A program made the translations under genes and the position numbers. A stretch of DNA of 63,919 nt, the filler included, from Aduncisulcus paluster (taxonomy: Eukaryota), in the NCBI GenBank assembly GCA_024181965.1. It is 5 parts of 5 records of this genome, joined end to end, with 100 filler letters (N's around TTAATTAATTAA, not from the genome) between each part and the next. Parts side by side here need not be neighbours in the genome. Positions count along the whole stretch, not along the records: positions 50,950 to 59,302 come from BQXS01010864.1; 4 more parts are not named here. One strand, 5' to 3'. This document shows, in pieces, positions 50,950 through 63,919 of this stretch; the stretch's first letter is position 1; the number at the start of each line of letters is the position of its first letter. The notes under the pieces are model-generated. The model made no database searches, was not told the origin of the DNA, and saw only the letters and a program-made list of their open reading frames with translations.

Positions 50950-51436
50950 CTTCTTCACGCTTCAGACGTTCCAGACGTTCTTCTTCCTCACGCTTCAGAC
51001 GCTCAGCTTCTTCAATTCTCTTGCGTTCGGCTTCTTCTTCCTCACGCTTCAGACGTTCTTCTTCCTCACGCTTCAGACGCTCAGCTTCTTCAATTCTCTT
51101 GCGTTCGGCTTCTTCTTCTTCACGCTTCAGACGTTCTTCCTCTTCGCTTCAGACGCTCAGCTTCTTCAATTCTCTTGCGTTCGGCTTCTTCTTCTTCTTC
51201 ACGCTTCAGACGTTCCAGACGTTCTTCTTCCTCACGCTTCAGACGCTCAGCTTCTTCAATTCTCTTGCGTTCGGCTTCTTCTTCCTCACGCTTCAGACGT
51301 TCTTCTTCCTCACGCTTCGGCTTCTTCTTCCTCACGCTTCAGACGTTCTTCTTCCTCACGCTTCAGACGCTCAGCTTCTTCAATTCTCTTGCGTTCGGCT
51401 TCTTCTTCTTCACGCTTCAGACGTTCTTCCTCTTCG
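50950..51436 (-). repeat. Coding minisatellite (RLKREEEE / AERKRIEEAE units; single-alpha-helix-like)
   Basis: Recurrent cacgcttcagacg and ctcagcttcttcaattctcttgcgttcggc blocks, with indels between copies. Confidence 0.9.
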
Positions 51437-54400
51437 TATTCAAGACGTGCAGTCTCTTCAAGTTCTAGCAATTCTTCCTCACACTTCTTTTTCCGCTCAA
51501 TATCTTCTCGTTCCTTTTCTTGTAGGGACTCTGCAAGGATAACATATTTCACTTCTTCCAGTCGCTGAGTTCGCGCGTTTTCCTTTTTCTGTTTTAATAT
51601 TGAAATGGGTGAATGTTTTGATTGAATCAACTCTTTCTTCTTTTTCCAAAATCTCTGCAATATCATAGTCTTAGTTGCTCTTCTACAAATGTCTGATTCG
51701 GCCTTTTGCCAGACCTCTTCAACCTTTTGTTTATGAGCCATTCGCCAATTCTTTTGAATATGTTTGCATAAGCTTTTGGTTGTATTGAATTCCATGTGGG
51801 TGATGACAACTTGACGTCGAGATGTAATCATATTTACAGCTTCCAATAATAGAGGTTGGACTGAGAACGTATGAACAGGTTTCAGATTAGAGTTTAAAAA
51901 TAGAATCCTTCTATAAATAGTCGATGAGAAAGAAGATGGGGATACATTGTGTTCCTTTGAGAGGAGTTGGCCACAATACACGGCGAACACAAGAGAAAGA
52001 AGGGGCAAAGAGGAACTGGGCGATAAGTATGGGAGAATCTTTGTAAAAGACTCCAATGGAGGCAAAAATGACATTGGAGGTTGTTCACTGTCAAGCTTGT
52101 CGTGAAGTTTCTTGGCACTCTCAAGCAAAACGGGCAATAATACTTTGTGAACTTTCTTGAGAGAATGGCTGGTATTTGTGAAATGAGTGAATTGACCTGG
52201 CCGAATGGGTTCAGATTCTTCACCAAAACATCCGCTTGACATTCCAGTGTTGAAATATAGGCGAATAAACTGAAGGCGTGGATTATAAGCAAGGCTAGTA
52301 GCTGATACTGACGGTGAACTTGTTGGAGAATCTTCATTGGAAGCAGAATGAATGGAATCAACAAAGGATAGTTGTTTTATAGATTTTTGAGAAGAACTCA
52401 GATTCATGGTGCCTCCAAAAGACAAGACGGGAGAGAATGTTGGAAAGACTGTTGGAGAACTCATTTCAATTTCACCAGGGGATGGATTTTGTGGCTCGAT
52501 GGGGTGCTCGGACATTACTCTAGATTTCTTTTCTTCCCACATCTCTTTCTCTCTCCTTCTAACATCATCACGCATGTCAATATGAACATGCATTTTGTGC
52601 CACACTCTTGCTCGTTGTTCATCAAGGCGTATTTGCTCCTGTTTGGCCTCCTCAATTTCCCAATTTCTCATAGAACACAATAAATCCATGACAATTCCAA
52701 CAATATCATGCTTTATCCATTCTTTTTCTGATATAATTCCACTCATAAAGCACAAAACAATGGGTAAAAGCCACGAAGAAAGAGCCCTTGGCAACGAAGA
52801 AATCAATGAATCGAAGGAACATAAAGAAATAGGAATGTAGGCAAGGGCAGATGAGAGAGAAAGTAAGGATAAGGCTTGATCAAGCATGGAAAGCTTAGGG
52901 GATTCTGTGGTAGTTTTTTTGGAGAGTGGAGACATACATAGATATGTGGATGGTGATGGCAATATACTCCCGTACTTCAAATTGCAGCTATCCTTCATGA
53001 AAGAATTCAGCATAATATACTCCGAGGCTGATGGGAAACGAACAAACTTCCCTCGATTCCAGATGTATCGGTGGCGAAGTCGGAATGAACATATACCTTT
53101 CTCAATAACGGGATTAGATGAATCACTGGTGAATCCACCCTCAGCCATTGTTTCTTTCCAATCATACACAAATTTATCGAGCATAGAAACATCTTTTGAG
53201 TCGGATTCCTTTGGCTTGGCCTTGGATTTAGCAATCAATGGTACCTTTCTAATTTTCTTTGATTTCTTTGGCTTGGAAGTTCCTGATCTATCTTTCCTCT
53301 TTTTCTTGTCATCCAATATTCCAATGAAATGCTTCCATCTAGAATATACAGCAAGAGGGAGGGGGAGAGAAGATGGGAAAGGGGATGACACGAAAGACTG
53401 AATGACATCTTCTGAGGTTTCTTTTGATTTTATACCAATAATATCCTCTTCTTCATCACTTTTACATGTCCAAACCTCCTCAAGCATCTTGATATCGCTC
53501 ACTGATGAGGGAAGTGCAGCAAGTCCAACACAAATGCACACAAGGATGAACTTTAGTTGATGATCGTGATATCTTGACATTGTTGAGGATGAGAATATGG
53601 GATCTGGAGATATCAATGACCTGTAAATCTCAGCCAAGAGGGCGGAAGAAGGACAGGAAGGGATAAGAGGTTTAACACTTCCAGAATAATCGAGAATTGA
53701 CTCAGTATATTCATTAGTCTCACTTTTTTTGCCATTAATTATCTTCTTTGCATCGAATTCCCCACGTTCAGTGAGGATAACACGGATTCTTTTCTTGACT
53801 ATCTGAACAATCTCCTCAAGATCTTGGTCAAGACCCTTTACCGAAGACAATCCTCTTTCTCGTCGCATTCTACGGGTACGGGTTGCAGTTACATGTGGAG
53901 TATGTGGATGAATTGAGGATAACGAAAGCGTGTATTTTGAATCAGAAACTACACTTTGAGACATTCGATGTCCTTTCAAAGAGGTTATCTTTTGATGATA
54001 TTCGAGCTCTGGAATCAGCATGGTCTTCTGAATAAAGGCTGCAAGAGACAAAGGAGATGTAAAAAACCTAGGGAGTGAGCTAAGTCGAGGAAGGATGGGA
54101 GCAGTTGTATGAAGGGAATATTTGAATTGAAATGGCGAAATTAAGTCCAGATTACCCTTCTCCAATTGATCGTTATGGTATTGTTTGGCACTAATACCAA
54201 TAGACGTAATTGGAGTGAAGAAGGGGGAAGTAAACTTGGAAGATGAGCGCTTAAACTTCATAGACGTAAGAAGATGGATGGCATTTATAGGTTTTTTACA
54301 AAAACATCCACATAATCCTTTCAAAATCAAAATTAAAGAATCCATTCGAGTTTCCGGGGCTAAAGGGGTATTCATTGGAAATATTCTTCCAAGTTCACCT

Positions 54401-55002
54401 AAAACTGGTGGGGGAGAAGGGGTATGATGTTGAGTTAATAACGAATCTAAAACAAGAAAAGACATGACAAGGCATATAAAATCGTGGCTATTACGTTGCA
54501 TATACCATTTCTTGACATCTTTTGGCATATCTTTTGATTTTTGATCGAATTTCTTGGGATATAAACGTCTGAACGATGCAGCTAAGGCTTCAGTAATTCG
54601 TCTTTTATAAATTTGTTTAGAAGAAGGTATTTCCGAATAATGTTTAGTAATTTGACATAAGACGGGATAAAAATAAGCGGGGTTGATACATAAAAGAATA
54701 TTAAAGATCTTATTTGATGAGGAAGCAGCTTTGAAAACGATAGAAGAATTTAAGATTTGAATGGATTCTTTATCAATCAAAGATAGCACATAATTATACG
54801 ATTCAACATATTTTCGATCAACCATCCATGGATGGATACATTTTGAGAACGATTCCCCAGTTGGAGTTTCTGAAGATGAAGATATCGGCAATATCAAACT
54901 ATTAACATAAGAAATAAATGTATCACTCTCCCTTTCTGCAATATTTTCTCGAAGAGTACTCATTATTCTATTGTGTGTGCCAAATGACATCGATTTTTTC
55001 AA
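50950..55002 (-). CDS. Large hypothetical protein with IQ-like motifs and a C-terminal E/R/K repeat; 3' end unresolved in the repeat and gap
   Basis: 1230-aa ORF (HIQKNWR, ILQRFWK). The repeat RLKREEEE-AERKRIEEAE continues in shifted frames to the spacer. Confidence 0.75.
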
Positions 55003-55188
55003 ATCGCCACATCTGGCAAAACATGCTCCAAAATCCTGATTCCACTGGCGCGATTTTGTTAAGTTGTTTATTCTTGGTAGTTTTACCAGTACACATCGTC
55101 ATTTTGGGGATGTAGAGAAAAAGAATACTTTATTGTTAGATAAGTAGATAAGTAGATATCACAACCTGTCAGTTAATCGGCATAATGA

Positions 55189-56002
55189 TTATACGCCGTA
55201 ACTGACGGCTCCAGGCTGAACGACATGCTGGTCAGGAACACCTCCACCATAACTAACAGCAGTGTTTGTAACTGGTGAATGGTGGGGATCAACTGGGATA
55301 GATGGAGAGGGCACAGGGGGTTGGCTCTGGTGAGAAGAGGCATCCATTCCATAAGATACACCAGGATCGCCAACATGAACATCAGATGGTTTGATAACTG
55401 GAGGTTGGGCGGTATCACCATAAGAAGCAGCACCAATGTGAGAATACACTTCAATATCGGTGTGTTTGTGGGGCTGATACTCAGTAGAAAGGGTGGGAGT
55501 GGGCTTGTCTCCTTTCATTTCTCGACCGGAATGATGTTTTTTAGGAGGGTTGGCAGAAAGCCAAATGGTAATGACATGACCGAGGTAGACTGCAAGAGCA
55601 AGGAATCCGATACATAAGAAAGTAGTTCCAGATGTGTATTGAGGATAGGATTTTCCTTGTTTGATACCGAAGAATAAAAATGTTTTTTTCTGATATTGAG
55701 AAAACTTTTCAGAAGTTCTCATGGCCAATTGACACTCATCGGGAAGATATCCCACAGATTTATAAGAACATCCAGATGTGGCAGAAGGGGCAATAATAAT
55801 GCCAAGTATAATGCAAATAGGTCCAACAAGGGAAAATAGAACTAATAATCAAAAAATATAAATATAAGAACTAAAAAAAAAGGACAGAAAGCCTATAATA
55901 AAATACTTGAACAAAAGGAGACATACCCTCACCGAGGAAGGCCAATGTATTATATTTGCATATATGACCATAAAATTTAAATATTTCACCAAAAAAACCC
56001 AT
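55189..56002 (-). CDS. Two-TM membrane protein with Pro-rich tail, 242 aa, intron 55842-55926
   Basis: Exon 1 MGFFGEIFKFYGHICKYNTLAFLGE splices (GTATGT..ATTAG) in frame to VLFSLVGPICIILG and on into ORF 55189-55755. Confidence 0.75.
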
Positions 56003-56349
56003 CTCTAACTCTCAAAATGAAACACAAAAAGTAGTAATTATTCACGCGCTGAAATAATATCTTTTTGAAAGAAGTTCAATAGTAAATTAAATTTTCGTAT
56101 TGTGTGGATTCCAATTTACCCTTTTATTATGGTCTTTTCAGTTTTGCAACGGAAATAGGAAGTGTGTTCTTAGGTGTGTGTCTGAAGGGGTAACTTTTCA
56201 ATATAAACTGAACACACAAAAGAAATTAAAAAGTATATCAAATTTGTCTAAAAAGATGTATGTAATATCTCTCAAGCCAACAAGAAATACAAATGGCGTG
56301 TTTTCGATCTATACTTTAAGTAATCAATCTTTTTTCATTTATAATCAAA

Positions 56350-57117
56350 ATGCATCCAACTCAAGAACAGATTGACAGTGTAAAAAAGATTCGGCAACTG
56401 GAATTAGATGCTTTTACTGCTGTTGCCAAAGCCTGTCGTGCAAATGAAACTTTATTATACGAAAGATTAAGTATTTTACCAACTATGGCAAAATTATTTA
56501 AAATAGATGGCGATACCTTCCGTAAAACTCTTGATTCTGTGGCTGGGGAGGAAGGGCTTAAAGAATTAGCTTCTTTCTCGAAATTGTATGTTTTATGGTA
56601 TTATTCTTTATGTTATTTTTAAAAAAATATATCTTATTTATTCATTTTTTCCTATTCTTTTTCAAGTTATGAAACAGCTTCTGGTCCTACAATTGAACCA
56701 GTGATGGCACCCATTTCAAGTCATAGACCAACCAAAAGAAGGTCAACGATTACATCTACCCCACCTCAACCTGTTACTCCTGTCCGCCCTCATCCACACC
56801 ATGTCACAACTTCCACAATAGCTTCCATTGCTACCCCGACTAAATCAACCCCAAAACCCCCTAAAACAGACAAAGATACAAAAACTCAAATTCCAACAAG
56901 TGCTCTTGGTGTTCTTTTATGTGATGATACCGTATTTATTGATCGAGCCACAAAGAAAAAGCATGTTGATCTTGGGAAACAAGTTGTGTCTTTTATGGAT
57001 CTCCCTATAGATAAATTACAAGAAACTTATTCTGTCCAAGATTTGATGGAATTCAGAGGAAAATTACTTCGAGAGTTGTTCACTCTTCACGACAGATATG
57101 CACAGCTTACACTTTAG
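56350..57117 (+). CDS. ENT (EMSY N-terminal)-like domain protein, 228 aa, intron 56586-56666
   Basis: IRQLELDAFTAVAKACRA..L.YERL..L..MAKLFKI fits the ENT helical pattern; the GTATGT..CAAG intron joins two ORFs in frame. Confidence 0.65.
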
Positions 57118-57320
57118 AAATTTTAGATAATATTCCCGATTTAATTGGGTAAAAAATCAAAGGAAGAAGAGAGTGCTTTGTGCGAATATGTTGCAAAATC
57201 GTAGTTTAGGCTGAATAAAGAAAATTTTAAGAAATGAATATGTATGTAACATCTTCTGATCCTATTATTTATGGATGACTAAATTACAAAAATTTCCTTA
57301 TTTTTGCTTTCAATTCGGTC

Positions 57321-57500
57321 TATTAGGGGGTTTTCCGAATAGGGGGGTAATTTCGAAATAAAAAGGCAATAAATGAAATATCCCACCAATAAACTTTATT
57401 GGTCACCAATTTCGAAATTGGCCCCCTATTCGGAAATTGCTGCCCGATTAATGAAATTGGTCACCAATTTCGAAATTGGGCGCCAATAAACTTTATTGGT
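57321..57500. repeat. Cluster of palindromes and inverted repeats, putative transposon terminus
   Basis: 15-bp IR at 57332-57346/57422-57436; palindrome CCAATAAACTTTATTGG twice; palindrome CCAATTTCGAAATTGG twice plus a partial copy. Confidence 0.7.
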
Positions 57501-57697
57501 GTTTTGGCAACATTTTAATGTCATTTCGTGCAGAATTAGATTTGGAAAGAGCACTGAAGCTGAGGACACAGCACCCCAATGGCACGAACAGTCAGTAAGC
57601 TTATCTTTCTTGTCCCAAAGTGGTACTAGGGCAAGAGAAGAAGAGGAAGACTAATCTATATTGTAATAATTATCGCGATTTGAATGCCAAATATGAT

Positions 57698-58299
57698 CAG
57701 GGGTGTACATCTGGCGGTCACTTGAAATTGTAAAATGCAGCCAATTAGGCAGCCAATTGTTTTAGTCATCAACGGGTAGATTCACTGTATCTAGTGATAT
57801 TAGACGATTTTGCATGAATTATAGGAATAATTAGTCAAATTACTTGTCCATTAAAAGTAAAAAAGTAAACTTTTGGAAGAAAATATTTAATATAGCATGC
57901 TGTAGGATAATTTTAGGTTGATTCGTATTTGAGCAGAATAATAAAAGAACATTGCCTAATATGGCCTTTTTGTATTATTAATATCTTTAAAAACATTTTT
58001 TCTTGAGATGGCATTTCATTTATATTCGTAATTTCACCTCAATCAATGATCATCTTCTTATCCAAGAAAGTAGAAGAAAGGATCCGAGAAATGTCTCATA
58101 TGAAGTGTATATACAATGTAGAATATGAAATAGAGCCGTATAAACCCATAATTATTGCGAAACGATGCAAAAAAAAGAGATTCAAATCACGAAATTTGTG
58201 GAGTTATTTTCAAAAAAAAACGCAAAATGCAGCCACTTGGCAGCCAATTGCAGCCAAATTTCTCGTTGGCAGCCAGCGGCTGCAAGATGTACACCCCTG
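57698..58299. mobile_element. Non-autonomous hAT-type DNA transposon (MITE), 602 bp
   Basis: Perfect 15-bp TIRs CAGGGGTGTACATCT (57698-57712) and AGATGTACACCCCTG (58285-58299). 8-bp TSD AATATGAT at 57690-57697 and 58300-58307. Subterminal GCAGCCA repeats at both ends. Confidence 0.92.
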
Positions 58300-58339
58300 A
58301 ATATGATATTTGAAATATCAATAGCAATACTACTAGTAA

Positions 58340-59302
58340 ATTAGTAATTTATATTATCTGTCTCATGAAATTAATTGCTGTTTGGCTGAAACGTTCATAA
58401 AAGAACCCATGTCTGCACCCCTTCCTCTAATTTACGGCTCCACGAAGGGGTATTCATCCTGCCTTACCGAATGGGCTTCCACAATGAGTATAGCAACCAC
58501 AACCTGGCTCAAGAAACAATACTGGAGGTATTGTTACCGCTATTGTCGGGTTATAACCCATGGTTCTCAATTAAGCGGATATAACCTTCTGGGTTTAGTG
58601 CGGAGTGCAGATCTTACATCAAGTGAGTTTAATTTTAGCAAATACCCGCTCCTTAAACTCATTAAAGAAGGATTTAAGGACTTTGAGCGGAGATTTGAGG
58701 TAATTAGATCAATATCCTCTTTTTTTACTGCTCGGATGGCTGCGGCCCGGGCCGGCGATGAACCGGTTGGTTTTCGTTCAGTTCCAATCCTCCCCACTTC
58801 TTCTTCTATCTCCTTCTTCCAAATCCCTAATTCTTTAATTAAGAAAGATTTGTTGAGCTTAAAGGGAGAAAGGTTTTTAATGAAAACGATTAGAAGATTG
58901 AGAAAGAGAAGTGACTGTGGAGATATTGGCCTAGTTAAGATAAAAACTGACGGGATAAACGTTAGAATCCTCTTCGGTCCTACTTCGGCTAACTATAGCT
59001 GTGTTTATAGCTCCAAAGAAGTAGAAGTCGAAAAAATAGATTATTACCCACCACCTCCTCCTCCACCACCCTTATATCCCTCCACTATGGTTGTTGGGGT
59101 AGATCCTGGGCGTGCAGCACTTGCCGGAGTGGCGGTTCTCTCGTGTTCCCCCAGTGGTACGGTTTCAAATCAATCTTCTGTAATATGCACATTAATTCCA
59201 GCTCCTTCGCGTAAAATCAGTACTAGGGTAAATAATATTATGAAATTATTTAACAAAATAGATTTTATTTCGACAAGAGAAGACCCTATAGCCAGACTGA
59301 GC
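58340..59302 (+). CDS. Fanzor1-like (eukaryotic TnpB homolog) RNA-guided endonuclease, 3'-truncated by gap
   Basis: Ordered Fanzor-like motifs: ASTMSIATTTWL..QYWRY, RSVPILPT..FFQI, IKTDGINVRILF (TDG at 58946-58954), and RuvC-I VVGVDPG (Asp codon 59102-59104). Frame is open 58340-59302; first ATG at 58409. Confidence 0.8.
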
Positions 59303-59402
59303 NNNNNNNNNNNNNNNNNNNNNNNNNNNNNNNNNNNNNNNNNNNNTTAATTAATTAANNNNNNNNNNNNNNNNNNNNNNNNNNNNNNNNNNNNNNNNNN
59401 NN
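59303..59402. other. Artificial spacer N44-TTAATTAATTAA-N44
   Basis: Same as 16707-16806. Confidence 0.97.
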
Positions 59403-59403
59403 T

Positions 59404-62400
59404 AAGGACACATACTTTATCCCCAATAGTTGTATTTTGAACAATGTGGATGATTATGTATGTGACTCAGAAACATATCCAACGCAATGCCCTTCAATAG
59501 TTCTGAATGAGGTGTTCAACAGTGTGGATGGTGTGAACGCGAAACAATGTGCATTCATTGCGAAGGAAGGGAGCAGTAGTGAGTGTTACACTGTTCATGA
59601 TGATTATATTCGACAATATCTGAAGGATCAGTGTCTTTCCACGAGTGACCCTGAATCAAATGGTGTCATCAGTGTTGCCACCATGAGGAGTGTTTTGTCA
59701 TGTCCATTGGATGCTAATAGTAATGAGTCATTGTCAATTCCAGCTATTGCTTCTGCAGCTTCCTTAGGTTCTGTGAATTCCATCACGACTCTGCAAGGTC
59801 TTGAGTATGCCACTTCATTGACCTCTCTGACCCTTGATGGTTATGACTTGAGTGGAGATATTAATTCCAATGCTGAGTATGATAAGTTGGTTGTTCAGAT
59901 CTTAGCGAAGGCTGTGACATATGCACCCATTGATTCTGGTCTGAGGATATTATCTGTGAGTGGATGCGGATTGAGTGCTATCAGTGATGTGCTTGACTTG
60001 ACTCCCATTGCTTCTGGAGACCCAACCACAGACCAATTCAAACTGACATCCCTAGATCTCTCAAACAACTCCATCTCTGATGTTTCTGTTCTCATCACAT
60101 CATCAATGTTCCCAACCAATGTTCTTTCCTTTCTTGATATTAGTGATAACAATATTTGTGACATTGATGCTGTGGTGAGTGCGCTTGATGAACATTTTAC
60201 ATTTTTGTCCTCTTCAAATATCTTCTCATCTAGTCAATCATCATGTCCATGCGCTGGCCTCTATCCCTTGTCTTTCTCCAAGCATAGAACTTGTCGAAAG
60301 ACATCGGCTGGAGTATATCGAGTTGAATGTTGGAATGGGTATTATTGGAATAAGAACTCATCGACATGCATTGAAGCTACAACAGATAATGATAAACTTC
60401 GAAGTCAAGTTTGTGAACGTAATGGAACAGTGCCAACAATTTATATGGATAGTTCTGAGATTTTGTGTGGAATATGTGGCCTTGGATATCATGGGGATAC
60501 ATGTGAATACGTTGACATTCCCGATGCTAACCTTCGAAGTGCTTTGTGTCTGGCTGTTACTAATCCAACTCCTCATGATTTATTATGCAATGACTTGACT
60601 ATTGCAGACATGGCTACTATGACTTCTGTGAGTGCTTCAACCGTGGACTCCTTTGAAGGTCTACAGCATGCTGTGAACCTCACATCTTTATCCATCTCTG
60701 GCACTTCGTCTAGTTCTGTGTCCATTGGGAATACTGATCTTGGATACATTCCTTTGTCATTAACTGATTTAACTCTTGAGGATGTCTATCTTGATGCTGA
60801 TAGTGACTTCTCTATCTTCCCCAATCTTACAACACTCTCCGTGAAGAACAATTCCTCGTATGATTTGACAAATTCTGCTCTATTCCCATCCTCATCGTCT
60901 TCTTCTTCATCTTTCACATCTCTTGATGTTAGTTACACTGCATTGTCCTCTTTCTCTTCCATTCCAACCTCAATCACGGACTTGACTGCAAACAACTGTT
61001 CCTCACTGACGAGTTTCTCAACCATCTCCAATCTCACGAATCTTGTCTCTCTTGATGTAAGTTATGCCTCAAATGTATCAGACTTCTCTTCTTTGCTCTC
61101 TAATATTCCACTCACAATATGTATTCTCTATGCTAATGGATGTGATGTTACTTCAAATACGGATTTCACATCATTTACAGCGCTCACGACACTCTCTTTG
61201 AATGACAACACAGAATATGATATCACTGAGTCTGGGCTTTTCCCTTCGTCTCTCAGTTCTTTTAGTGCCAACAACACTTCACTCTCTTTGTTGTTCCATC
61301 TTGCTGCCAGCATACCCAATGTGACTGATCTTTCTCTGAGTAACAATAACATCTCTGATCCTTCCCCATTGTATGATTTGTCCAGCAGTGGTTCTTGGAA
61401 CAGCCTTGACTTGTCCGATAATCATATCTGTGGTGGTAATAGTGCAATTGAAACTTTCCTTGCAAATAAGTTTTCTCCTGCGACCGTGAATGTTTCTGGT
61501 CAAGCCTGCATATGTTCCTCTGTTGACCCCGAATCGATTCCTCTCGCTACCAACAAGGTCTGTGCTGAGACTCTGCCTGGGTCTGGTGCTTGGTATGTTG
61601 TGTGTGCCAGTGATTCATTCACATCATACACATCTGCTGAGGACTTTACATGTATCCAACCAGATTCATTCACCACAAACTGTTCTGGAGGGTGTGAGTA
61701 TGGATATGAGTGTAGATATCTTGACGATGAAGTGGTTGGCACTGTTTCTTATTCTACTGGAGAGTGTCAACAAGTGATCGTCGATGATAACTTGCATGCT
61801 TGTGTTGCTGATATGTTTGTGGATTCTGATGGAAATGATGATTATACTCATCGAATAGATTCCACGCTATCGCTTTTCAGCGTGGCCTCCTTGAAGACTC
61901 TTGTGACTGTTGAAGACAATGACGGGAATATTACAAGTGAATATTTACAATACAGGTACACGAGTTCATCAGATTTCATCAGCGATCTCTCTGGGATTGA
62001 ACATCTTGCTTTCGTTACATATATCTATATCTTATATATTGATGTTTTAAGTCTCAATGATCTCGAACTCGTGTCAACTCTAACAAACCTCAAATATCTT
62101 TATCTACTAAGTTATCAGTATGGCCCTACAACCTTCGATTTTCCAGATTTCACTCTTCTTTCTGATCTTGATACTTTGAATATTTATAATGCATCTATGA
62201 CCTTCCCTGCAGATCAATATGTTCTACCTTCTTCTCTTAAAACATTATCCATTTCAAAATGTGATATATCTCAAACAGGTTTTGAAAAGAATGTCAGTGA
62301 TCTTCTTGTCAATCTTAAAGCACTCAATATATCAAACACTTCCATATCTTTCCCCTCGGATCGATATGTTGTTCCATCAACGATTAGAAACTTGGATATT

Positions 62401-63919
62401 TATCGCACATCTATCAATCAAGCTGGTTTTGATAAGAATGTTGGTTACGATTACTTATCATCCCTTGAATATTTACAATTTGGAGGAGAATATAATGAGA
62501 TTACTTCGATTGAATCGTTATCAGAGAACCAACTGTCAAATATCACCAGCTTTTATTTCTATAATTATCCCATTTATGATGGGTTTAATGATGTTATTTC
62601 TGAAATGACAAGTTTGATAAATGTTGGTTTAACTAATTGTAATTTGTTGACAATTCCTGATCTTTCAAACAGTGCTACTACTTTGACGGGTCTTTTCATT
62701 AACTCCAATCCCGATGTTACATCTTTAGTTCCATTATCTAGGATTGAATTTGATTCACTTCAGGACATTCGCATACCTTATTGTTCCATTTCTGATCTCT
62801 CTCCTTTGTATGATATCCCCAACATATCGAATATTAATTGTTTTGGCAACAATATATGTTTTGGATCGGAGGGTATCTCTGAGCTTCAGAACAAGTTTAC
62901 CCAATCATCTGGCATTTATTTCTCTGTGGGATCACAAAGTTGTGAATGTTCCTCCGATGATCTCGGCTCGACTCCTATCACTGACAATCTTGTGTGCAGT
63001 GAAACCAAGCCTGGATCTAACACATGGTATGTTGTGTGTGCCAGTGATTCATACACGTCATACACCGATGCGTCGACATTTTCATGCATTTCCCCAGCTA
63101 ATGCTGATGGGACATATGGATGTTCTGGCGGGTGTAAGTATGGATATGAGTGCAGATATGACTCAGATTCAACTTCAACATCGTGTCAGCAAGTGATCGT
63201 CGATGAGAACTTACATACCTATGTTGCCGATATGTTTGTGGATTCTGAAGACAATCCTGATGATACACATCGGATTTTTGCCATAGATTCCTCGCCTTCC
63301 CTTTTCAGCGTTGCTTCCTTGAGAACCCTTTCTGCATCTACTTTGTCCAACAATGGTTTTGCTCTCTCCAACTCTGATAGGTTTTCCTTGCTTGATGGAA
63401 TTGAACATATCCGCTCTCTTACATCCATTTCGTTGCCATATCACAACTTTGTGAGTGCTGATCCATTGGGTTCTCTGCATGGTCTTGAGTCCCTTTCCCT
63501 TGCCCATAACATGTATGGTGCTCCTGAGGATGCTGGTGGGAATGCCATTGAAGGCTTTTCTGATCTGTCGTTCATCTGCTCCCTTCACTCACTCTCCACT
63601 CTGGCACTCTCTTCTGTCACTTCTGTGTCTGCTCTTCCCGACACTTCCGAGTGTGCTGATACATACACCTCCTTGAGCTCTCTCAATCTCGCCGAAACAT
63701 CCATTATTGATGTTAGTGCTCTTCTTGTTGCTGCCGACTCTACCAATGTTTCGTTGACGGAGCTGATAATGAATGGTGTGTCGTTGTATGATGATGTTGC
63801 AGAAACGACTTCATTGTTTGATCCATCCATTCTTGTGAGTTTCTCTTCCATTTCCTCCTTAGGCCTTGCCTCCCTGGGTCTTGTAGATTCCGATCTCTTA
63901 TCCATTGTGCATCTTGCTC
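59404..63919 (+). CDS. Internal fragment (~1500 codons) of a giant internalin-like LRR / Cys-rich / EGF-like surface protein
   Basis: Frame from 59404 reads as coding at every point sampled up to the window end, so it is absent from the ORF track. Motifs: LTSLDLSNNSISDVS LRRs, IPDANLRSAL cap, LQGLEYA/LSGIEHL, EGF-like CGLGYHGDTCE, and a repeated WYVVCASDS..CSGGC.YGYECRY module. Confidence 0.85.

Follow-up and report, generated by a model that had tools for sequence, protein, structure and literature searches.

The window analysed here is a stretch of 63,919 nucleotides of DNA that joins five contigs from the draft genome (GCA_024181965.1) of the free-living fornicate metamonad Aduncisulcus paluster (Fornicata, Metamonada). 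The open reading frame (ORF) at 58340-59302 of this window is very probably the front part of a Fanzor1-type gene. The gene, of which the window holds the 5' ~60%, is nuclear, transcribed and low-copy, and appears to belong to a very divergent, fornicate-specific branch of Fanzor1; whether its product is a working nuclease is not deducible from the window. To our knowledge, Fanzors are the only RNA-guided DNA endonucleases of eukaryotes. They have been found in fungi, in amoebae and algae, in some animals and in giant viruses, and are under development as compact genome editors. Our literature search did not link Fanzor or TnpB with metamonads, Giardia or Trichomonas, and the same holds for the main texts of the key Fanzor papers, whose supplementary host tables may list some. 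What is new is a very divergent Fanzor1-type member, the gene for which has so far been annotated as 'hypothetical'.

The ORF (P0001) lies on the plus strand and runs for 321 codons without a stop, a length that the base composition of the window would yield by chance with a probability of ~2.6e-10. As an earlier note on this DNA had stated, the frame is preceded by a stop at 58337-58339, which we read as an in-frame TAA, and a further in-frame TGA stands at 58304-58306; the first ATG is codon 24 (58409-58411), the start used in the database gene model. The motif strings listed in the earlier note are all present in this frame and in the order given. A long helix at residues 35-72 (58442-58555), which includes the string TMSIATTTW (residues 48-56, 58481-58507), aligns with the REC helix of Fanzor1, weakly on its own. 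It is followed by SVPILPTSSSISFFQI (residues 147-162, 58778-58825), the counterpart of the conserved Fanzor1 'F.LLP.k.sf..s.ItId' block of the WED domain in both sequence and profile-profile alignments, and by a beta-hairpin (58925-58981) that corresponds to the WED hairpin of Fanzor1 and contains IKTDGINVRILF (residues 201-212), with the TDG motif at T203, D204 and G205 (58946-58954). A linker of eight prolines (residues 237-244, 59048-59071), the length of which varies among relatives, separates this hairpin from the RuvC-I strand MVVGVDPGRAALAGVAV (59087-59137). Within the latter, the motif VVGVDPG (residues 251-257) holds the candidate catalytic Asp255 (59102-59104), 231 residues past the first ATG and thus at the spacing of ~230 residues noted previously.

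The frame is open to its end because the 8,353-bp contig that carries it (50950-59302) stops there, 66 codons past Asp255. The 100 positions that follow (59303-59402; N44, TTAATTAATTAA, N44) are a non-biological contig joiner, the four occurrences of which split the window into its five contigs, and the remaining part of the gene therefore lies outside the window. Past the contig end would also fall the RuvC-II and RuvC-III segments, the zinc finger, any omegaRNA and the element ends. The earlier note had expected RuvC-II/III, the nuclease-associated domain and the omegaRNA 'in the gap'; this does not hold, since the gap is this joiner and the sequence after it, from 59403, is unlinked.

We searched the ORF with phmmer against 1.84 billion representative proteins and obtained six matches at E ≤ 0.001, four of which are true relatives, all from A. 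paluster: the ORF's own database model, P0003 (3.9e-51), P0004 (3.4e-13) and P0005 (1.7e-6). The other two were rejected as matches between proline runs. In a BLASTP comparison, residues 23-299 of the ORF align with residues 75-339 of P0004 (E = 7e-18), a similarity that fades past residue ~291 of the ORF, and a hidden Markov model (HMM) of the P0004 family recovers the ORF at 1.8e-17 as its sole match among 176 six-frame pieces of the contig. P0004 is 559 residues long and has three cluster mates (P0008, P0009 and P0010) that are at least 90% identical and are encoded on separate contigs, giving a family of four members. A word-indexed protein search brought up no longer relatives of the ORF, and a search near its own length returned its own model and P0003 only; with P0004 as the query, the word-indexed search found A. 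paluster proteins only. Altogether, the A. paluster genome encodes at least three diverged Fanzor-like families, of the P0001/P0003, P0004 and P0011 types.

The members differ in how much of the gene they hold. Residues 224-360 of P0003 pair with 58772-59236 of the window and the rest of this protein is unrelated to the ORF, so that P0003, being partial or chimeric, provides no information on the missing half of the gene. The TDG hairpin is skipped in P0003, yet is encoded by a paralogous DNA contig. P0005 parts from P0004 after RuvC-I. P0011 (VGIDPGRSVLFG, with SDG in place of TDG) is of the third family type, and its model looks chimeric, holding a piece 85% identical to the P0004 family. 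Several gene models of the A. paluster Fanzor-like families look mis-spliced.

The P0004 family carries the half of the protein that the window does not reach. All four full-length or C-terminal members of the family match the Cas12f1-like TNB domain of Pfam (PF07282) at 37.7-45.3 bits, above the cut-off of 26.3, and the NCBIfam model guided_TnpB matches them at 1e-7 to 2e-11, a score that lies below the whole-protein cut-off and comes from the last ~58 residues only. The automatic label given to P0004 in UniRef is likewise 'Cas12f1-like TNB domain-containing protein'. Among the NCBIfam results, IS607_TnpB was matched by P0008 only (E = 0.11), and a profile match extending beyond the TNB domain was not obtained. 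In order along P0004 stand LGIDPGR (D296), LLAYGD (G430), VDEYHTSKLCPYC (E476 and T479), a second pair of cysteines and HRDSLAALNI (R512, D513). The Bao-Jurka motif, D-X(125,275)-[TS][TS]-X-X-C4-X(5,50)-RD in the form given in PMC3627910, is found in P0004 as D296, a spacing of 183 residues, T479-S, CxxC...CxxxC and R512-D513; the ORF in the window holds only the first D. Furthermore, the RuvC domain of Fanzors is described by Jiang 2023 (PMC10530073) as rearranged, with Gly or Pro replacing the canonical RuvC-II Glu and a substitute Glu ~45 residues downstream. P0004 displays this Fanzor arrangement, with Gly430 at the canonical RuvC-II position and Glu476 46 residues further on.

To place the family we turned to a collection of viral contigs (IMG/VR), the only eukaryote-linked collection that was scanned. 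A back-translated pattern for DEYHTSK.CP..C gave no loci in this collection, and the relaxed pattern DEY.T[ST]K.C..C gave 89, mostly on giant-virus metagenome-assembled genomes (GVMAG). Of these loci, 54 carry ORFs of at least 500 residues, 53 of which (within loci L002-L089) are joined into one family by BLAST; after removal of the outlier L001 and of three identical duplicates, 50 sequences of 503-812 residues were aligned as the reference set A3, 38 of them reaching the Pfam TNB domain at E ≤ 0.01. The A3 profile matches the solved SpuFz1 (8GKH) over its full length at E = 1.4e-74, the Parasitella Fz1 (PpFz1) at 1.8e-63 and the Guillardia Fz1 (GtFz1) at 2.5e-51, compared with 4.8e-7 for the mimivirus Fanzor2 and 0.4 for the ISDra2 TnpB. 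The E-values for the Fanzor1 structures are thus lower than that for Fanzor2 by over 40 orders of magnitude, and because it the A3 profile matches solved Fanzor1 proteins far better than Fanzor2 or TnpB, we take this set to be Fanzor1.

Invariant or nearly so across A3 are the TDG strand, the D, P and G of RuvC-I, a Gly that occupies the old RuvC-II position, DEY, four cysteines and RD..N. These columns fall on TTDG, IDPN (D383, N385), MGDWS, LDEYKTS (E541) and NRD (D606) of SpuFz1, where D383, N385, E541 and D606 are the Mg-coordinating residues as described by Saito et al. 2023 (PMC10432273). The combination of TDG followed by xxGxDPG, which the earlier note had treated as a Fanzor1 signature, is therefore well founded in the alignments, being nearly invariant in the 50 viral Fanzor1 proteins and aligned with TTDG and IDPN of SpuFz1. 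That TDG 'defines' Fanzor1 would nevertheless be our own reading of these alignments rather than a published definition. Against the A3 profile, P0004 scores 77.6 bits in a match over 300 residues that extends from the TDG hairpin through the C-terminal RP..F tail, and profile-profile comparison by hhalign links the P0004 family to A3 at 98.0% (E = 1.7e-13), with a second run giving 95.3% (E = 2e-8) over 394 columns (P0004 83-541 to reference 122-570).

We then compared the ORF directly with the Fanzor1 profile, into which no A. paluster sequence had been entered. It scores 8.4 bits in two collinear pieces, residues 35-72 on profile positions 129-166 and residues 200-261 on positions 317-379, and ranks top of the 176 six-frame pieces of the contig (E = 0.0069; the next at 0.34). 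None of 3000 shuffled versions of the ORF reached 8.4 bits (maximum 5.0), and the reversed sequence scored -3.2. When P0001 and P0003 alone were compared with the Fanzor1 profile, hhalign gave 53%. The first of the two pieces is the long helix, which is further supported by hhalign at 50-69% and by a predicted helix at residues 40-75 (see below), and the second includes the TDG hairpin. In an alignment of 46 sequences (A4; seven A. paluster proteins together with 39 of the 50 viral ones, thinned by hand for near-duplicates), D255 and P256 are invariant and TDG is nearly so, with the D255 motif on the profile columns of SpuFz1 D383. The four blocks of the ORF, namely the REC helix, the LP strand, the TDG hairpin and the DPG of RuvC-I, match the four conserved blocks of Fanzor1 in order. 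MAFFT also paired the last residues of the ORF, KIDFISTRE, with DEY-TSK; we rejected this pairing as an artefact, as BLASTP lacks it and hhalign gives the alternative 0.3%.

The ESM Atlas provides a separate line of evidence. In it, the clusters nearest to the database model of the ORF (0.98, 205 of 256 features) are DUF8286 proteins of Nucleocytoviricota and Mucoromycota, and 22 of the 30 hits belong to the DUF8286 family set. In the same resource, the clusters nearest to P0004 are from giant viruses, 620-707 residues long, and combine DUF8286 with the TNB domain. A Pfam scan for DUF8286 (PF26935) matched none of the 50 A3 members, and the literature search brought up no mention of this domain.

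Structure prediction by AlphaFold2 (AF2), with the A4 alignment as input, gave a model of the ORF with a mean predicted local distance difference test score (pLDDT) of 51.9 and a predicted template modelling score of 0.43. The predicted layout is the expected one: helices at residues 40-75 (pLDDT 58-70) and 115-138, a TDG hairpin at 196-214 (strands 196-203 and 208-214), strands at 250-253, 263-266 and 280-282, and a helix at 291-306. A Foldseek search of the PDB with this model (pLDDT 51.9) returned no match at E ≤ 0.001, a result that is uninformative about the fold because the model is poor. The structure search proposed in the earlier note was thus uninformative for the ORF itself. The model of its relative P0004 is confident in the C-terminal half only (pLDDT 70-91, residues ~290-545). 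The Foldseek matches listed for this model at E ≤ 0.001, 31 in number, are without exception chains of Cas12, TnpB or Fanzor. Structural alignment with VIA-align gave Z 13.3 for AsCas12f (3.7 Å, 196 residues aligned), 12.3 for ISDra2 TnpB, 11.5 for Fanzor2 and 10.8 for SpuFz1 (6.0 Å over 222 aligned residues, pairing 288-540 of the model with 375-633 of the chain), as well as 11.4 for the RuvC resolvase and 10.6 for Tex; alignments in the range Z 10.5-13.3 span residues 258/288-542 of the model. These comparisons confirm a predicted RuvC plus TNB fold for P0004, with the family undecided by the fold. The Fanzor1 label rests on sequence profiles.

A number of results weigh against the Fanzor1 assignment. 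Searched alone, the ORF yields only noise against Pfam, NCBIfam and PDB sequences, and PDB sequence searches with P0004 alone, or with a profile of A. paluster sequences only (A1), return neither TnpB nor Fanzor. As the direct score of the ORF is only 8.4 bits, its assignment rests largely on transitive homology via P0004. The score of P0004 is in turn partly circular, because A3 was gathered with ~12 residues of P0004's own motif, which inflates it; the other ~290 aligned columns are not circular. The ranking of folds does not split Fanzor1 from Cas12f and TnpB, and the resolvase and Tex appear in it as well. Tree building placed the A. paluster family apart from the giant-virus Fanzor1 proteins sampled, on a branch 2.56 changes per site long, and since such long branches make its placement unreliable we draw no donor or direction from the tree. 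All close homologues of the ORF come from one fragmented draft genome, in which partial or chimeric copies exist, P0003 being one of them. The ORF also lacks ~75 N-terminal residues of P0004, and ~100 or more of a typical Fanzor1, with its frame closed upstream, and a six-frame search of the contig with profiles of Fanzor1 and of the P0004 family brought up no upstream N-terminal exon. This leaves the N-terminus doubtful, in keeping with the suspicion in the earlier note that its extreme end may be missing or disrupted. The 23 in-frame codons ahead of the first Met bear a faint likeness to the Cys-rich N-terminal region of P0004. Finally, the window includes neither the catalytic Glu nor the RuvC-III Asp, and it likewise lacks the zinc finger, any omegaRNA and the ends of the element.

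On balance, the ORF belongs to a lineage of the TnpB superfamily, the best affinity of which, as the profile comparisons indicate, is Fanzor1. The description of the ORF as Fanzor1-like in the earlier note stands in this form, by way of P0004, although the direct evidence on the ORF, with its 8.4 bits and low-confidence fold, is weak.

The results that follow concern the host and the expression of the gene. Residues 24-272 of the ORF are 100% identical to the hypothetical protein ADUPG1_008065 (252 residues) of A. paluster, which makes definite the metamonad origin that had been considered probable. The annotated protein ends in ...SPSVLG, an ending that is reproducible solely by removing a 64-nt GT..AG 'intron' at 59157-59220 (plus strand), after which the frame runs into a TAA. 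We doubt this intron because a contig of sequencing run X2 spans 58953-59302 ungapped and without a reported joint, and because P0003 and P0004 conserve the frame that reads through it; both the intron and the annotated C-terminus are probably prediction artefacts of a truncated contig.

Upstream of the ORF, at 56350-57117, lies a gene with an ENT (EMSY N-terminal) domain (E = 1.8e-9), the 81-nt GT..AG intron of which (56586-56666) is spliced out in a 948-nt contig of run X2. No sequencing run is on record as RNA; we take X2 to contain RNA because this one contig shows the ENT gene intron spliced. The contig with the ORF, bearing a spliced ENT-domain gene, is nuclear. Contigs from X2 span 58272-58832 and 58953-59302 of the window, the second of them extending ~359 nt past the contig end, and the depth in this run is 417 over the upstream gene, 5-23 in the intergenic region 57443-57664 and 453-528 over most of the ORF. 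This pattern fits transcription of the ORF, with the contigs giving neither strand nor level. In the DNA run X1, the depth over the ORF is 2.4k-4.3k, ~2-4x that of single contigs (~1.1-1.3k), and the gene is therefore low-copy. On the 8.3-kb contig we recognised neither a transposase nor element ends, and the flanks were not seen a second time.

The depth of X2 is uneven within the ORF. At 58775-58996 the contigs add up to a depth of 5.6k-12k, with single sites reaching 19k, compared with ~450-530 in the remaining ORF. The X2 contigs concerned match the letters of the window and not those of the paralogue, and DNA depth shows no matching rise. RNA folding of this segment on both strands gave z-scores of 0.32 and -0.54, which are nothing special, and an Rfam scan of 56000-59302 found nothing near any gathering score. 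The peak may reflect contigs cross-laid on CT-rich or GA-rich low-complexity tracts, or an abundant transcript that includes the fragment.

If the Fanzor1 assignment is accepted, the most serious alternative is that the ORF derives from Fanzor1 but no longer encodes a nuclease, being either a copy in decay, truncated at its 5' end or damaged internally (a pseudogene that is still transcribed), or a host gene that was domesticated and retains nucleic-acid binding only. We hold this to be a real possibility, if the less likely course. The in-frame stop at 58337 and the ~75 N-terminal residues missing relative to P0004 would be explained in this way, as would the insertion of a miniature inverted-repeat transposable element (MITE) 40 bp upstream, the existence of a partial, chimeric paralogue in P0003, and the lack of any transposase, terminal inverted repeat (TIR) or second flank copy on the 8.3-kb contig. 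In addition, past residue ~291, where the likeness to P0004 fades, the few differences from a paralogous contig are non-synonymous in three of four codons. Decay would not, however, be expected to leave a run of 321 open codons (chance ~2.6e-10) with both the RuvC-I DPG and the TDG intact, nor contigs from the RNA-containing run over the ORF at a depth similar to that over the adjacent spliced gene, and the tail up to 59302 lies at the distance expected for the helix that follows RuvC-I (AF2 helix 291-306). A paralogous DNA contig provides a further point, as it differs from the window over 58822-58994 at 15 sites, 10 of which are third codon positions (P = 0.0085), with seven synonymous and six non-synonymous codon changes, the latter giving the residues of P0003. 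Such an excess at third positions suggests that the WED segment is, or at least was, under purifying selection.

A bolder proposal combines these observations: fornicates might possess their own compact Fanzor1 lineage (~500-560 residues, compared with 600-700) with no N-terminal extension and at least three families, in which the gene of the ORF, being low-copy, transcribed, under purifying selection and without a recognisable transposon, would have been domesticated as an RNA-guided or RNA-binding host protein and would not be the passenger of a transposon. We regard this as improbable. The word 'compact', used of the ORF in the earlier note, has to be qualified in any case, since its shortness may partly reflect 5' truncation, the frame being shut at 58337 and ~75 N-terminal residues of P0004 lacking.

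The possibility that the contig is a giant-virus (Nucleocytoviricota) insertion or a contaminant, and the gene no resident of A. paluster, might be raised from the fact that relatives outside this species were found solely on giant-virus MAG contigs and that the Atlas neighbours are mostly from Nucleocytoviricota. The viral look of the nearest relatives is a sampling effect, however, because viral contigs were the only eukaryote-linked collection scanned. The same contig bears a spliced ENT-domain gene and a MITE that is high-copy in the A. paluster genome; its GC content (0.34-0.38 across 56-60 kb) is comparable to that of the remaining window, the published draft genome (25,863 contigs, N50 4.6 kb) having 39.1% (PMC9933649). 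At least three diverged families occur in the genome, the P0004 cluster lies on four different contigs, and the family is remote from the sampled viral clade (branch of 2.56, 15-18% identity). A viral or contaminant source is thus very unlikely. Searches with a pattern for the RuvC-I strand extended the family no further, since none of 45 pattern matches in viral contigs and none of 422 in metagenome contigs was confirmed as a relative.

Least probable of all, and largely refuted, is a lineage-specific protein unrelated to TnpB and Fanzor with TDG and DPG by chance, which would account for the lack of direct matches in Pfam, NCBIfam and the PDB and for the poor AF2 model (pLDDT 51.9, Foldseek empty at E ≤ 0.001), but not for homology to P0004 over ~275 residues at 3.4e-13 among 1.84 billion proteins, the full TnpB/Fanzor catalytic half in P0004, four blocks in Fanzor1 order, a direct profile score reached by 0 of 3000 shuffles, or Atlas neighbours in DUF8286 clusters, the companion family of TNB near P0004.

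Under the preferred reading, with the ORF as the leading portion of a Fanzor1-type gene, it seems reasonable to suggest how the product would work. The part in the window would supply the helices of the REC lobe, the WED strands with the TDG hairpin and the first RuvC segment with the candidate Asp255. Beyond the contig end one would expect a helical insert in RuvC, a Gly where RuvC-II formerly lay, the relocated Glu as part of DEY-TS, a C4 zinc finger (the TNB domain) and the RD motif. Homology, motif order, RuvC-I, cover by contigs of the RNA-containing run and the nuclear context are what the data show, whereas nuclease activity, a guide RNA and mobility are inferred. If the missing half is intact, the gene would encode a SpuFz1-like protein that binds an omegaRNA which its own element encodes at the 3' end; the REC helix and the WED domain would read a short target-adjacent motif (TAM), an R-loop would follow, and a single RuvC site would cut both DNA strands. 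In SpuFz1, the REC helix's N-terminal end reads the TAM via Q129, Q130 and N133, as described by Saito 2023 (PMC10432273). In a weak alignment these residues are replaced by S39, S40 and T43 in the ORF, so that a different TAM would be expected.

Other features of the contig stand apart from the gene. The MITE upstream of the ORF is 602 bp long (57698-58299), ends on both sides in the perfect 15-bp terminal inverted repeats CAGGGGTGTACATCT and is flanked by the 8-bp target duplication AATATGAT at 57690-57697 and 58300-58307. The label hAT-like is tentative and goes by the 8-bp duplication and the CAGGG termini. Its DNA word depth in run X1 is 25k-65k, compared with 2.4k-4.3k on the ORF, so that it is high-copy in the genome, and loose ends of sequencing contigs coincide with both of its edges. 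It is the sole element with TIRs and a target-site duplication recognised on the 8.3-kb contig, and is a neighbour of the Fanzor-like gene, no part thereof. A palindromic tandem repeat block at 57332-57501, made up of 4.7 copies of the 19-nt unit ATTGGTCACCAATTTCGAA with nested inverted repeats of 28 and 47 nt, stands out by a very high DNA depth of ~29k, with separate loose ends at 57383 and 57419; it is another high-copy element or satellite of the A. paluster genome. The contig also carries, on the minus strand, an ORF of 1,230 residues (51310-55002) with no Pfam match and a Glu/Arg-rich tail. On the next contig, a frame of 1,494 codons (59437-63918), open at the window end, encodes repeated leucine-rich, Cys-containing modules; lying on a separate contig, it is uninformative on the Fanzor1-like gene.

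If the Fanzor1 assignment is right, a fornicate lineage would widen the host range of Fanzors with a form that is 15-20% identical to solved Fanzor1 and has a full-length version of 559 residues, and the A. paluster family would add a short natural scaffold together with a new TAM-reading surface. The window alone, with its non-catalytic front and RuvC-I, is of limited value in this respect, and the full-length P0004 family would be the better choice for experiments.

We finally compare the family with known systems. Cas12f proteins, the prokaryotic, CRISPR-associated effectors of type V-F, resemble the P0004 model most closely in structure (Z 12.5-13.3) and have the RuvC/TNB core in common with it, without a sequence match to P0004 beyond the TNB domain; on a eukaryotic contig such as this one a CRISPR array would not be expected. 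Fanzor2 or IS607-type TnpB (mimivirus L79, 9B0L) and ISDra2 TnpB (8H1J) likewise share the RuvC and TNB core and the zinc finger with P0004, whereas their sequence profiles match only its C-terminal ~60 residues; ISDra2 TnpB keeps the canonical RuvC-II Glu, which P0004 lacks. The giant-virus Fanzor1 clade is the closest outside relative reached and shares TDG, IDPGR, AYG/GFGD, DEY.TSK.C..C, RD.NA..NI and RP..F with the P0004 family, although it starts with ~100 residues (a basic tail and the first helices) that the A. paluster proteins lack. With SpuFz1 (8GKH), as presented in PMC10432273, identity is ~15-20% and HMMER searches from A. paluster sequences alone do not reach it. P0004 has 559 residues to the 638 of SpuFz1, most Fz1 proteins being 600-700 residues long by the account of Xu 2024; the candidate Asp of the ORF is at 255 (position 232 when counted from the first Met) compared with D383, indicating a far shorter N-terminal region; and the ORF has DPG where SpuFz1 has DPN, while a poly-Pro linker follows its TDG hairpin ahead of RuvC-I. 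Across this distance the order of blocks is nevertheless common to the ORF and SpuFz1, running from the REC helix through the 'LP' WED strand and the TDG hairpin to the DPG/DPN of RuvC-I, and P0004 continues it with the Gly at the old RuvC-II position, the Glu of DEY-TS (equivalent to E541), the C4 zinc finger, the RD motif (equivalent to D606) and the RP..F tail.

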